Positions 940-20,928 of a DNA stretch of 25,073 nucleotides are shown one piece after another; within the stretch, counting starts at the first letter, position 1, and each line of letters starts with the position of its first letter. The notes below the pieces were generated by a model. It did not search any database. It saw nothing but the letters and a program-made list of their open reading frames with translations, and had not been told where the DNA came from. Source of the stretch: a virus (taxonomy: Duplodnaviria > Heunggongvirae > Uroviricota > Caudoviricetes); the IMG/VR virus record IMGVR_UViG_2850784384_000008; one strand, written 5' to 3'. The translations under genes and the position numbers were made by a program.

Positions 940-982
940 TGAGGTGTACTGGCAATAGCGGACACTACCATTTGTTCTTTTT

Positions 983-1774
983 TTAAGCAGTCATCTGATG
1001 ATATTTTTCCCTGAAGGCTGCCGGGGAGATATTCCCCAGACGAGAGTGACGACGCTGACGATTGTAGAAAATCTCAATGTATTCCCGTATTACTGAGATG
1101 GCTTCATCCCGGTTATTAAAACGATAGTGGCTCAGGCTCTCATTTTTCAGCGTTCCCCAGAAGCTTTCCATCGGAGCGTTGTCGTAACAGTTACCTTTAC
1201 GCGACATTGATGTTTTCAGACCAGACTGCTCCTGTATGACCCGGTAATCGTATGCGCAGTACTGTGAACCTCGATCAGAGTGGTGGATTAGCCCGGCAGG
1301 TGGGCGCTGGCTCCTGAGCGCCATAAACAGGGCTTTACCTGTCAGCTCTTTTGTCATGCGCTCTCCCATGGCGTAGCCGACAATTTCGCACGTATAAACA
1401 TCTTTGATGCCAGCAACATACGTCAGGTCCGCCACCCAGACCTGATTTGGTGCTGTAGGAGCGAACGTCTGGTTCAGCAGATTTGGCGCAACTGGCAGAT
1501 TGTGGTTCGGGTTCGTAGTCGCTCTGAACTTGCGTTTCTGCTTACAGCGTAGCCTTAGCTCCTTACGAAGACATGCCAGTCGGTCACGACCAACGATGAT
1601 GCCATTCTCTGCCAGCTCCGTCTGGAGCCGCCGGGTTCCATATGTTTCGCGAGTGCGGATATGTGCCACCTTAATCTCCAGTTTTAGCCGCTCATCACTT
1701 TGTTTTCTGTCTGAGGGTTCATGCTGTACCCAGTTGTAATAACCGCTCCTGGATACACCAAATACCTGACACAT
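983..1774 (-). CDS. IS3-family transposase OrfB (DDE integrase domain), carrying a 9-aa in-frame deletion relative to the other two copies
   Basis: 263 aa versus 272 aa in copies B and C; lacks TQEGWLYLA immediately after the ...[10 protein letters not shown] motif; deletion junction near 1414/1415. Confidence 0.75.
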   Translation of the reverse strand: MCQVFGVSRSGYYNWVQHEPSDRKQSDERLKLEIKVAHIRTRETYGTRRLQTELAENGIIVGRDRLACLRKELRLRCKQKRKFRATTNPNHNLPVAPNLLNQTFAPTAPNQVWVADLTYVAGIKDVYTCEIVGYAMGERMTKELTGKALFMALRSQRPPAGLIHHSDRGSQYCAYDYRVIQEQSGLKTSMSRKGNCYDNAPMESFWGTLKNESLSHYRFNNRDEAISVIREYIEIFYNRQRRHSRLGNISPAAFREKYHQMTA

Positions 1775-1809
1775 CGCTTCAATGGGAAATTGTTGTCGCC
1801 ATTGTTCGA

Positions 1810-2112
1810 TTAACGCGTATTTTTCAGCGACTCCTGTGCAAAATACGCTGTTGCTTTTTTTAATATATCTCGCTCAAGGCGAGCTTCATTTAACGCCTTA
1901 CGCAGTTGCAGAATTTCAGATTCCAGTTCAGCCACCGTGCGGAAACCAGGAGTACCGAGCCCTTTTCTGGCGGCGGTAACCCATTGTCCTAAAGTGCCTT
2001 CAGGAAGAGATAATCGGGAAGCGCCTTCACTGATCGAAAGTTGATTTTCAAGAACCGTTCTGACAGCTTCGGCTTTGAACTCTTTAGAGTAACGTTGGGT
2101 TTTTCTGCTCAT
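1810..2112 (-). CDS. IS3-family transposase OrfA (HTH, leucine-zipper region)
   Basis: 100-aa ORF MSRKTQRYSKEFKAEAVRTVLENQ..., followed by an A7G run typical of -1 frameshift sites in IS3-family elements. Confidence 0.8.
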   Translation of the reverse strand: MSRKTQRYSKEFKAEAVRTVLENQLSISEGASRLSLPEGTLGQWVTAARKGLGTPGFRTVAELESEILQLRKALNEARLERDILKKATAYFAQESLKNTR

Positions 2113-2176
2113 TATTAGCTCCTTCTGATGCCATTCTATTTCAGGAAGGAGTGTCCGTTAAACTCAGGCTACCTCA

Positions 2177-2305
2177 CAGGTCAGTCCATCACAGTGGGCT
2201 GCGATTGGTGTGCTGGGAAGTCTGCTTCTGGGGCTTCTGACTTATCTGACGAATCTGTATTTCAAAATAAGAGAAGATAAGCGTAAGGCTGCGAGAGGTG
2301 AATAA
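2177..2305 (+). pseudogene. holin 3' fragment (last 42 codons; EssD / S21-like class), 5' end replaced by IS600-like copy A
   Basis: In-frame translation from the IS boundary reads [42 protein letters not shown], stop TAA at 2303-2305 overlapping the lysozyme ATG (TAATG); matches DLP12-type holin C-terminus from memory. Confidence 0.7.
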
Positions 2306-18032: not shown

Positions 18033-18075
18033 TGAGGTGTACTGGCAATAGCGGACACTACCATTTGTTCTTTTT

Positions 18076-18894
18076 TTAAGCAGCCATCTGATGATATTTT
18101 TCCCTGAAGGCTGCCGGGGAGATATTCCCCAGACGAGAGTGACGACGCTGACGATTGTAGAAAATCTCAATGTATTCCCGTATTACTGAGATGGCTTCAT
18201 CCCGGTTATTAAAACGATAGTGGCTCAGGCTCTCATTTTTCAGCGTTCCCCAGAAGCTTTCCATCGGAGCGTTGTCGTAACAGTTACCTTTACGCGACAT
18301 TGATGTTTTCAGACCAGACTGCTCCTGTATGACCCGGTAATCGTATGCGCAGTACTGTGAACCTCGATCAGAGTGGTGGATTAGCCCGGCAGGTGGGCGC
18401 TGGCTCCTGAGCGCCATAAACAGGGCTTTACCTGTCAGCTCTTTTGTCATGCGCTCTCCCATGGCGTAGCCGACAATTTCGCACGTATAAACATCTTTGA
18501 TGCCAGCGAGGTACAACCATCCCTCCTGTGTGGCAACATACGTCAGGTCCGCCACCCAGACCTGATTTGGTGCTGTAGGAGCGAACGTCTGGTTCAGCAG
18601 ATTTGGCGCAACTGGCAGATTGTGGTTCGGGTTCGTAGTCGCTCTGAACTTGCGTTTCTGCTTACAGCGTAGCCTCAGCTCCTTACGAAGACATGCCAGT
18701 CGGTCACGACCAACGATGATGCCATTCTCTGCCAGCTCCGTCTGGAGCCGCCGGGTTCCATATGTTTCGCGAGTGCGGATATGTGCCACCTTAATCTCCA
18801 GTTTTAGCCGCTCATCACTTTGTTTTCTGTCTGAGGGTTCATGCTGTACCCAGTTGTAATAACCGCTCCTGGATACACCAAATACCTGACACAT
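18076..18894 (-). CDS. IS3-family transposase OrfB (DDE domain)
   Basis: 272 aa, full length; differs from copy B at a few residues. Confidence 0.85.
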   Translation of the reverse strand: MCQVFGVSRSGYYNWVQHEPSDRKQSDERLKLEIKVAHIRTRETYGTRRLQTELAENGIIVGRDRLACLRKELRLRCKQKRKFRATTNPNHNLPVAPNLLNQTFAPTAPNQVWVADLTYVATQEGWLYLAGIKDVYTCEIVGYAMGERMTKELTGKALFMALRSQRPPAGLIHHSDRGSQYCAYDYRVIQEQSGLKTSMSRKGNCYDNAPMESFWGTLKNESLSHYRFNNRDEAISVIREYIEIFYNRQRRHSRLGNISPAAFREKYHQMAA

Positions 18895-18929
18895 CGCTTC
18901 AATGGGAAATTGTTGTCGCCATTGTTCGA

Positions 18930-19232
18930 TTAACGCGTATTTTTCAGCGACTCCTGTGCAAAATACGCTGTTGCTTTTTTTAATATATCGCGCTCAAGGC
19001 GAGCTTCATTTAACGCCTTACGCAGTTGCAGAATTTCAGATTCCAGTTCAGCCACCGTGCGGGAACCAGGAGTACCGAGCCCTTTTCTGGCGGCGGTAAC
19101 CCATTGTCCTAAAGTGCCTTCAGGAAGGGATAATCGGGAAGCGCCTTCACTGATCGAAAGTTGATTTTCAAGAACCGTTCTGACAGCTTCGGCTTTGAAC
19201 TCTTTAGAGTAACGTTGGGTTTTTCTGCTCAT
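18930..19232 (-). CDS. IS3-family transposase OrfA
   Basis: 100-aa ORF, near-identical to the other copies. Confidence 0.85.
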   Translation of the reverse strand: MSRKTQRYSKEFKAEAVRTVLENQLSISEGASRLSLPEGTLGQWVTAARKGLGTPGSRTVAELESEILQLRKALNEARLERDILKKATAYFAQESLKNTR

Positions 19233-19293
19233 TATTAGCTCCTTCTGATGCCATTCTATTTCAGGAAGGAGTGTCCGTTAAACTCAGGCTATC

Positions 19294-20928
19294 TCAATAA
19301 ACCGTGCTGTGTAACTGCTGTGGATCAAATCTGACCACAACTTTTTTCACTCCGGCATTCATTAATGCCATGTTGTAATAAACGTTTTTCGCGCCTTTAA
19401 GGGAGCCGCCAACTTTAAGCGTAAACTCGCCTTTGCGTGAAACGTTCACCGCCTCGGCAGGCAGTAACAGCATCCGTTTTTGTTCTTCGGTTGGCTTACG
19501 CACAATCGTTCTGGCGTATTCACGCTCGAAAACATCATCAAACGAGAGTTTGCCCCCGCACATTTCTGTTTCACGGCCTGTTCTGGCATTGAACATCGCC
19601 ACACCTTCGGCAAAGGTTTTCAGAAACAGCTCTGCATCAACAGCGTGGTCGCCATAGTTATCAGGTTTTGCCTGCGGATTTGGCCCCGTATATGCGCCAG
19701 CCAGTGCCGGATGCTTATCAACGTATTCCTCAAGCCCACCAACACCGAAAGCACGTTCAACAGGTTTTGCCTGGCCCCAGCCTTTACCGGCAACAACGCT
19801 TGTCCAGTGCATTTTCGCACCCATCAGTAAAAACAGTCCTTTTGGATCGTCCTCTTTTACCTTAAAGCGGTAGCGATTGGGCGCGCCTCCCGTCAGCCAT
19901 TTATTCGCAGCACCACGGGTGTTATCAATGGTGATGTGAAAATCCTCCGGGATACTGTAGCGAGTCACAACATCCATGAACGAGAGGCGAATTGAATCAA
20001 TGTTCTCGCTCACATCGCAGCGCCAGCCCAGAATTTTTCGGGTTTTCACATCCTGCCAGAACCATGTTTTCGGACGGATCACATCACCGTTAAACCAGCG
20101 TACAAAGACGTTATGCAGATAACCGTCGCCGTTGATCCACTGCATGGCGTCCAGGTGTTCCACAGTTCGCTGCTGTGCCGGTATCAGATGCATCAGTGCA
20201 TGTTCACCTTCACGACAGGCAACAACCATTGCCTCGTCCAGTTGCTGAATCCGGCGAAAGGCCGTGGCACGGGAGGGAATACTCCAGCCATGCTCGCGGG
20301 CTGCCAGTTCCAGACGCTCATAACATTTGCGGAAGGCGGGTTTTTCCGGTCGCAGATAATCTGCAATCAGAAACTGCCAGGCATCCTCGTCAAATTCACT
20401 TTTGTGAACATTGCGACGGGATGCTCCACGTCCATCAACAAGTGCAGCCGCCCAGTCAGGCTTCGCAAACTTCTGTACCTGGTAATACTTGTCCCGCAAA
20501 GTGGATGCGCTGACCTGGTAATGCCCTGCAACGGTCGCAAAAGCCGTTTTCGTTGAAATCCCCTGGTTCAGCATTTCGTCTGTGGCCTGAATTGAGGGCA
20601 ACCATTTTTCAGCCAGGCTGCGCTGGGAATCGCTGGCTTTATCCCATTTGCTCCATAGTGCCTCACGATCATAATCATGAGCTTCCAGCGTGGGGCGGGC
20701 GATTTCAAAACATCCCTGACTGGTTTTAAATTTTCCTTGTTGGAGCAAAACTTCAGCTCGAGCAATGTTAGGAAGAGAAGATATATGGTATTCGTAAGCA
20801 ACCCCTCTAATTCCTTCTCTTCTTCTCTTGAGCCATCCTTCTCTCTGAGCTCTTTTGTGAACCCCCATTAATGAACCAGGTAAACCAGATAAACCCATGC
20901 ATTCAATTGCTGATATCCACTCTCTCAT
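19294..20928 (-). pseudogene. A: Mu-type transposase A, C-terminally truncated at residue 544 by IS600-like copy C (stop supplied by the IS end)
   Basis: Long stretch …[38 protein letters not shown]…[47 protein letters not shown]…[15 protein letters not shown] that I recognise as near-identical to phage Mu MuA from residue ~75 on; N-terminal 70 aa diverge. Confidence 0.85.

Follow-up and report, generated by a model that had tools for sequence, protein, structure and literature searches.

How do two copies of one insertion sequence (IS) come to join fragments of different genes without a target duplication? The question is raised by a stretch of 25,073 nucleotides (in the following, the window), recorded in IMG/VR as virus IMGVR_UViG_2850784384_000008 and consisting of Shigella flexneri chromosomal DNA. 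The window carries three copies of IS600, here called A, B, and C in their order along the sequence. An original prediction, made from the letters alone, held that copy B is flanked by a clean TAC duplication, that copy A joins codon 45 of an integrase gene to the last 42 codons of a holin gene, and that copy C joins a gene of a phage head module to the transposase gene A of a Mu-type element at residue 544. Recombination between pairs of IS600 copies was invoked, one event deleting the whole early region between integrase and holin, another fusing the head module to the Mu-type element. As set out below, copies A and C are very probably hybrids that arose by homologous exchange between IS600 copies, and the rearrangement that they record differs from the one proposed. 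The window was mapped by Pfam and NCBIfam scans, and the codon positions at the junctions (integrase 45, holin 30-71, Mu A 544) were checked against intact genes; IS flanks were read from the right (IRR) to the left inverted repeat (IRL).

According to repeat finding and alignment, the three IS600 copies are mutually 99% identical, with B inverted relative to A and C. Copies B and C measure 1264 bp, and copy A measures 1237 bp owing to an internal 27-bp in-frame deletion in orfB. The element has imperfect terminal inverted repeats beginning TGAGGT (ends TGAGGTGTACTGG... and ...GGCTACCTCA) and is 99.6% identical over 1264 bp to features annotated in RefSeq as 'IS3-like element IS600 family transposase'. 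It contains the two overlapping open reading frames (ORFs) of the IS3-family type, which match the Pfam domains HTH_Tnp_1 (OrfA) and HTH_21/rve/rve_3/rve_2 (OrfB); the NCBIfam model transpos_IS3 matches with 329 bits, and gene callers report a fused 385-aa OrfAB. The deletion in copy A (window 1413-1421) takes nine residues from the integrase-core region of orfB and probably inactivated the transposase of this copy. It is shared by CP026768.1, CP034060.1, CP128220.1, and WACK01000005.1, is absent from strains 2457T and 301, and is a lineage marker. Very short contigs with the label Streptomyces sp. UG1 and several contigs of metagenome-assembled genomes (Bacteroidetes, Bacillota, Lachnospiraceae), all within the set L055, L058, L071, L084, and L085, also have exact IS600 ends, among them those of a full 1264-bp copy (99.1% identity); contamination or mis-binned Escherichia/Shigella reads are the most likely source.

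The flanks distinguish one simple insertion from two hybrids. Copy B lies between ...CATGGTA and GTATTACGG, i.e., GTA/GTA (TAC on the + strand), a clean 3-bp duplication as had been claimed, and the corresponding empty site is found in CP026768.1 and in two metagenome contigs (L021, L023, L024). Copy A lies between ...CTTCAGTGAT and CAGGTCAGTCC (GAT/CAG) and copy C between ...CCAAAGAAT and ATAAACCGTG (AAT/ATA), both without a duplication; here the predicted gene fusions, with holin residues Q30-E71 following copy A, are accurate to the base. A 3-bp duplication is what simple IS600 insertions give, as exemplified by copy B and by the pflA-proximal copy of 2457T (CTG). In two complete S. flexneri-type genomes, a direct repeat of 3-5 bp is kept by only 11 of 26 and 7 of 19 full-length IS600 copies, and about 60% of such copies thus have none. 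That IS600 transposition might often leave no duplication had been named as an objection to recombination. Since 3 bp is the rule wherever a repeat exists (16 of the 18 repeat-bearing copies in the two genomes), the absence of repeats points to later exchange, not to sloppy transposition. When the duplication-less copies were paired by triplet, one-sided matches were about as many as chance predicts.

Hybrid junctions could be produced at the computer, by collapse of reads over 1.26-kb repeats, given that the IS copies are 99% identical and exceed short-read length. Such an artefact has next to no chance of being the explanation. Window positions 1-19019, which contain the whole arrangement from A to C, are 100.000% identical to CP034060.1 over 19,019 bp and 99.98% identical to CP128220.1. 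Junction C, with an identical truncated Mu A product, recurs in hundreds of assemblies, including the complete S. flexneri genomes CP001383, CP012137, and LM651928, where copy C and the head module lie on one side and dpiA'-dcuC-pagP on the other. Junction A (GAT/CAG) is present in AE014073 (2457T), CP026788, LR213455, CP026768, and others. Because the same junctions occur in many independent complete assemblies, misassembly, which the original prediction had wished to see checked, is excluded.

Where the joined genes come from is revealed by E. coli FDAARGOS_944, a related genome of the kind the prediction had proposed to consult, which keeps the unrearranged order. After ybhA, it carries a first prophage with its own integrase, an early region, a DUF1133 Q-like gene, four tRNAs, holin, rrrD, Rz, DedA, terminase, head, tail, tfa, and ipaHb. 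This is followed by pgl-ybhD-ybhH-ybhI-ybhJ-ybhC and then by a second prophage at the lambda attachment site, beginning with a 356-aa integrase, xis, etc. The integrase of the window comprises residues 45-356 of a 356-aa lambda-type integrase and has 100% DNA identity to FDAARGOS_944 (L108 15298-16236), with ybhC adjoining the integrase in all related loci. The segment from holin to head, in turn, is 99.3-99.8% identical to the first prophage of FDAARGOS_944, and the right end of this prophage ('tfa-ipaH) still adjoins pgl in S. flexneri. By these sequence matches, the integrase derives from the second lambdoid prophage at the lambda attachment site, and the holin and head module from the ipaH-carrying prophage at ybhA/pgl. 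The target sites in holin, integrase, and head gene are intact in FDAARGOS_944, as is the Mu A site in phage Mu. Measured on FDAARGOS_944, 37.1 kb separate the two cut points, that in the holin being the upstream one; both have the same orientation, and tail genes, ipaH, and pgl-ybhC occupy the interval. Junction A is thus a 37.1-kb backward jump and therefore a joint of circle closure, not of deletion.

A prophage at ybhC/ybhB is also found in E. coli O157:H7, the cryptic prophage CP-933K. It resembles the window in its attachment site and in its integrase, whose DNA is 99.3% identical over window 1-941, whereas the window keeps only integrase codons 45-356 and has adjacent late genes from a different prophage. 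In CP-933K-like prophages that carry this integrase, a class II holin lies at a distance of about 10 kb, and the strands in the window (integrase -, holin and head +) resemble the lambda prophage map. Both facts speak for a single lambdoid prophage whose early region was deleted in place by IS600 x IS600 exchange, a second IS600 deletion then fusing its head module to a neighbouring Mu element. This model is nonetheless hardly credible: the integrase is 100% identical to that of the other prophage, which in the unrearranged relative follows the holin downstream at a distance of 37 kb; the prophage to which the holin belongs carries a different integrase, beside ybhA; and deletions cannot bring about the permuted order of the chromosomal flanks. 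Moreover, the early region supposed to have been lost in one event survives elsewhere in S. flexneri, together with the 5' half of the holin gene, the tRNAs, and the Q-like gene of the first prophage; on this point, the original prediction was mistaken.

The missing half of the holin gene was recovered by comparing the blocks next to all IS600 IRR ends of species-representative genomes with Mu, the intact prophage, and K-12 segments. Holin codons 1-30, ending ...TTGGATCAG (...GATCAG), lie directly against the IRR of a full IS600 in CP182556.1 (L068) and CP178302.1 (L090), and the window shows CAGGTCAGT (CAG-GTC) right after the IRL end of copy A. Joined with one CAG, the halves yield a 71-aa holin, and the joined DNA has uninterrupted matches of 99.1-99.8% in four E. 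coli genomes. On the FDAARGOS_944 prophage (L105), the first half ends at 26133 and the second starts at 26131, with an overlap of exactly CAG. Because the halves each border IS600 at CAG, this triplet represents the split duplication of one original IS600 insertion in holin codon 30, which an exchange with a different IS600 copy later split. To its right, the partner copy is flanked by DNA of the second prophage, at att-lambda, in forward orientation and 12.6 kb beyond the integrase; a chromosome that a circle has left would be expected to show just such a deletion-type joint. In CP182556.1 (L041 4483-7936, ~892.5-895.9 kb), two inverted IS600 copies surround a 928-bp piece of the recE region (L105 14580-15507) whose orientation is opposite to that of the early region next to it, a small IS600-mediated inversion within the same dead prophage.

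Copy A has undergone further change in some strains. In 2457T, a second copy in the same orientation lies 9 kb beyond it, upstream of pflA, with an intact CTG duplication, and 301-type genomes have a single copy in the arrangement int'-GAT/IS600/CTG-pflA without the intervening DNA. Strain 301 thus has an additional IS600 x IS600 deletion at copy A, and this, together with the other holin half and its CAG beside another IS600, lends support to the proposed recombination between pairs of copies. Deletion adjacent to a single copy—driven by transposase in an intramolecular transposition or by the IS excision enhancer (IEE) and removing flanking DNA along with the duplication—might be considered in its place, as IEE-promoted flanking deletion has been reported for IS3-family elements (PMC9397093) and the nested losses that different strains show by the IRL end of IS911 copy 1 resemble adjacent deletions. 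It is nevertheless a very unlikely explanation: adjacent deletion only keeps the original order, which is reversed at junction A, and it cannot leave the other CAG half beside another full IS600 copy.

Junction C leads from the head module into the remnant of a Mu relative. Gene A, on the - strand at 20928-19297, encodes 544 residues of a Mu-type transposase, with a stop codon supplied by the IS end. The remnant is 96.6% identical to Mu positions 1-2962, contains Pfam Mu transposase domains, has c, ner, and A in Mu order, and terminates at 22157 with the Mu left end ...TCAATACA (end TGTATTGATTCACTTGAAGTACG, reverse complement, at 22135-22157). The window contains neither the right end of Mu nor the 5' part of dpiA. 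Its c/ner immunity region (window 20900-22157) is diverged from Mu and D108, and in megablast 58-65% of the remnant is covered in Mu-like phages, only E. coli UMNF18 matching across, at 91.9%. A second, separate Mu A fragment of 170 bp (Mu 1529-1698) lies near another IS600 (L051 650-819 in CP182556.1, ~1,424,650; L082 1935-2104); its identity of 95% to Mu and 89% to the window remnant suggests that a second Mu-like prophage may once have resided in S. flexneri. A Mu-like origin of the head module was considered and rejected, as related phages and prophages pair these head genes with lambda-like regulation (Q, S/R/Rz).

On the K-12 map, the DNA on the left side (pgl to ybhC) falls at ~798-807 kb and that on the right side (dpiA 3' part, dcuC, pagP ... 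dacA) at ~654-663 kb, in the same orientation. Junction C thus links loci that are ~145-150 kb apart in K-12. Because these flanks have the same orientation and a permuted order, neither a simple deletion nor a single inversion can have generated it, and the former was rejected on this ground. The fusion of head module and Mu element had accordingly been described correctly, but it is best taken for the other joint, the second, of a single translocation; it brings the loci into an order that deletion cannot give.

A history with only two exchanges explains the two hybrid junctions as well as the partner joint that was observed, and it seems moderately probable in its specific form. It would start from four IS600 insertions in direct orientation, each with its own 3-bp duplication, and proceed by RecA-type exchange. 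Insertion h would have hit an ipaH-carrying lambdoid myophage at ybhA/pgl in codon 30 of its holin gene (CAG), and insertion g the same prophage where STY1053 borders DUF4054 (AAT); insertion i would lie in integrase codon 45 of the second lambdoid prophage at the lambda attachment site, ~37 kb further (GAT), and insertion m in gene A of a Mu prophage in dpiA, ~145-150 kb away (ATA). Exchange between the direct repeats h and i would excise a circle of ~38 kb, carrying the 3' part of the holin gene, the head module, g, the tail genes, ipaH, pgl, ybhDHIJC, and the 3' part of the integrase gene, and closed by junction A, which combines the left flank of i with the right flank of h. A second exchange, between g on the circle and m, would then reinsert the circle into Mu A, so that junction C combines the left flank of g with the right flank of m. 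The order expected from these steps is that of the window, in which the end of the block that moved is followed by A, by the start of this block, by C, by the Mu remnant, and by dpiA. We infer the order of the two exchanges and the nature of the intermediate, a circle rather than a tandem duplication. It is about an even call that an IS600-bounded block of ~38 kb—with ipaH, a gene for a type III secretion system effector, phage late genes, and the six core genes pgl, ybhD, ybhH, ybhI, ybhJ, and ybhC of the chromosome—moved ~145-150 kb as a circle into the Mu remnant and was fixed early in S. flexneri.

Several observations weigh against this history. The partner joint of the holin has att-lambda DNA from 12.6 kb beyond the integrase, not the N-terminal part of the integrase, so that a further deletion must be assumed; nor was the 5' part of the integrase gene found beside any IRR-bearing IS600 of CP182556.1 and CP178302.1, a search that covered copies with an intact IRR and not truncated IRR-less ones. 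A fourth joint, in which the C-terminal part of Mu A would be followed by ATA/IS600/AAT and by DUF4054 and the tail genes, is not present at any IRR-bearing IS600 of two complete S. flexneri genomes, and Mu late DNA, the tail module, and the 5' part of dpiA were not found in the blocks next to these copies in CP182556.1 and CP178302.1; these pieces may have been deleted later. A query with full-length DpiA, aimed at the 5' half in S. flexneri, listed only full-length orthologues, and a query with its N-terminal part led to a 117-aa cluster represented by an E. coli dpiA with a frameshift and not by a Mu junction. A search aimed at genomes with the window arrangement did not return the exact 46-aa N-terminal holin product, the best long match being an unrelated phage contig; strains with this arrangement were read within ~10 kb of the window genes, a range in which neither the left neighbour of the moved block nor the 5' half of the holin was seen. 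Of the reciprocal junctions that the original prediction had proposed to look for, the holin partner and the early region have consequently been located, and partners for junction C and for the integrase side have not. Finally, a different series of exchanges between IS600 copies could end in this permutation as well.

Such a series, by three or more inversions or by an IS600-bounded tandem duplication and two IS600-mediated deletions, would involve the same IS600 copies and no free circle. Each of its steps would again be homologous exchange between IS600 copies and leave the same hybrid flanks, and large IS-mediated inversions are documented in S. flexneri, one being proven at this very locus for IS911 (see below). 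It requires more events than the two of excision and reintegration, and no intermediate arrangement occurs among the genomes sampled; we regard it as a distinctly less likely, though serious, alternative. Insertion of the unit from A to C as an IS600 composite transposon was also considered. Copies A and C are direct repeats bracketing 2177-18032 (15.9 kb), as in such a transposon; in contrast to one, their outer flanks, GAT and ATA, are unmatched and lie in unrelated genes, integrase and Mu A, so that insertion of this unit by transposition was rejected.

Excision and reintegration have a parallel in IS-bounded circle systems, in which a segment between direct IS copies leaves with one IS and re-enters at another copy. 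The translocatable units of IS26, with their RecA-dependent circle behaviour, offer a comparison. However, no transposase-specific conservative reaction is implied here: IS600 is a copy-out/paste-in element of the IS3 family, and its circle is inferred.

The features of the window are compiled in Table 1.

Table 1. Features of the window, with positions counted from its first nucleotide
Feature	Position	Strand	Remarks
Integrase 3' part, codons 45-356	1..939	-	Cut by IS600 A after GAT triplet; Pfam Phage_integrase, Arm-DNA-binding domain truncated
IS600 copy A	940..2176	-	Hybrid, flanks GAT/CAG; 27-bp in-frame deletion in orfB
Class II (S21/EssD-like) holin, codons 30-71	2177..2305	+	Begins at CAG, half of split 3-bp duplication; aligns from FDAARGOS_944 prophage (L105) 26131
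rrrD-like signal-arrest-release (SAR) endolysin, 5' part	2305..2598	+	Cut by IS66-family element; Pfam Phage_lysozyme; L105 alignment stops at 26552
IS66-family element (tnpA, tnpB, tnpC)	2599..6033	+	Holds IS600 B; right side truncated by IS911 copy 1; Pfam and NCBIfam IS66 TnpA/TnpB/DDE_Tnp_IS66
IS600 copy B	4366..5629	+	Simple insertion; duplication TAC at 4363-4365 and 5630-5632
IS911 copy 1	6034..7282	+	Left flank IS66 tnpC interior, right flank Rz C-terminal part
Rz C-terminal part (with Rz1), DedA-family gene, small-terminase-like gene	7283..9016	+	Small-terminase-like gene cut by IS911 copy 2
DedA-family gene	7617-8129	-	
IS911 copy 2	9017..10265	-	Simple insertion; GAT duplication
Head module: large terminase, portal, MuF-like protein, DUF2213, cement protein, major capsid protein, STY1053-family gene	10266..18032	+	STY1053-family gene cut at 18032
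IS2 inside large terminase gene	10959-12288		5-bp duplication (L105 29397-29401)
IS600 copy C	18033..19296	-	Hybrid, flanks AAT/ATA
Phage Mu relative, left 2.9 kb: transposase A residues 1-544, ner, repressor c, Mu left end	19297..22157	-	Repressor c on + strand
dpiA (citB) 3' part	22158..22499	+	Gene holding the Mu prophage; followed by dcuC and pagP in K-12 order

The head module is 99.3% identical to positions 29397-35164 of the FDAARGOS_944 prophage. Its cement-protein gene (window 16350-16706) has 118 codons, compared with 168 in the intact relative (L105 33465-33971), and the alignment of the module to this relative is 24 nt shorter overall; the head module therefore bears small inactivating lesions in addition to its IS insertions. 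The DedA gene, which encodes a DedA/VTT-family membrane protein, is oppositely oriented cargo between Rz and the small terminase gene, and its position is conserved in the intact relative and in other prophages.

Exchange between IS copies at this locus is not confined to IS600. In CP182556.1 and CP178302.1, two IS911 copies (L068 2135-3383 and L056 3245-4493) have reciprocally exchanged duplications, GTG from the Q-like gene and AAA from Rz (L105 24422-24424 and 26978-26980), which proves an IS911-mediated inversion; by our model, it spans ~175 kb, including dcuC...ybhA. Genomes of the 2457T, 301, CP182556.1, and CP178302.1 types hold such reciprocal IS911 hybrids, and the pieces belonging to junctions A and C lie ~190-230 kb apart in them. 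Because IS911 in Rz keeps an intact AAA duplication in CP026768.1 and the other genome types hold reciprocal hybrids, the arrangement of the window represents the earlier state with respect to this inversion. In UGYU01000001.1 (L020 14752-16000), a single AAA/GAT hybrid IS911 without Rz1-DedA-terS is the product of an IS911 x IS911 deletion; IS911 copy 2 of the window sits at the terS/terL boundary.

IS911 copy 1 (flanks 6019-6033 and 7283-7297) is a third hybrid junction, since it has the interior of IS66 tnpC on its left, with 1019 bp missing, and Rz on its right. It occupies the Rz site (flank AAAGCTG), where CP026768.1, UGYU01000001.1, and L113 hold an IS911 in opposite orientation with the AAA duplication. 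In CP097828.1 and CP024473.1, its left flank is located in rrrD (window 2409). This combination of in-place flip and nested leftward losses is unexplained by simple IS911 x IS911 exchange, and a look-up of the ORF across the IS66'-IS911 junction gave no record. Intact IS66 tnpC is present in CP026768.1, where 208 bp of rrrD/Rz (L105 26553-26760) are missing beside the right end of the IS66 element (L021 12509-13527). The IS66-family element in rrrD has several genomic copies, of which that in CP178302.1 (L056 1-2222) is a mosaic, 96.5% identical to the window in its left and 99.75% in its right part. IS2 copies have also recombined, because in CP024473.1 the DNA following the IS2 in terL is prophage early region instead of the rest of terL.

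Rearrangements of this kind are well known in Shigella. Six inversions and one translocation distinguish S. flexneri 5b from 2a, one of the inversions being attributed to IS600 (PMC1550401), and PMC8072062 reports high rearrangement rates in Shigella generally. Hybrid IS copies, mismatched flanks, split duplications, and differences from strain to strain are shared with the IS-mediated rearrangements of this genus, and there is no difference in kind; what is specific to the window is the event reconstructed for it, the probable move of a ~38-kb block with ipaH and pgl-ybhC into a Mu remnant at dpiA. The phenomenon is the ordinary IS scrambling and genome decay of Shigella and calls for no new mechanism or element.

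With regard to the original prediction, three prophages have taken part rather than two, and what the junctions preserve is the trace of a translocation instead of a local deletion. Three dead prophages make up the mosaic of the gal-bio/dpiA region in S. flexneri; IS600 and IS911 have shuffled them, and some strains show variants associated with IS66 and IS2. An IS copy that lacks its target duplication can be recognized as recombined, the triplets serving as barcodes that link partner copies, and an integrase next to late genes need not belong to the same prophage as they do. These points bear on prophage annotation, structural-variant typing, and assembly validation in Shigella. If relocation as a circle is true, IS-bounded circles can move core genes and effector islands without a dedicated mobility function.

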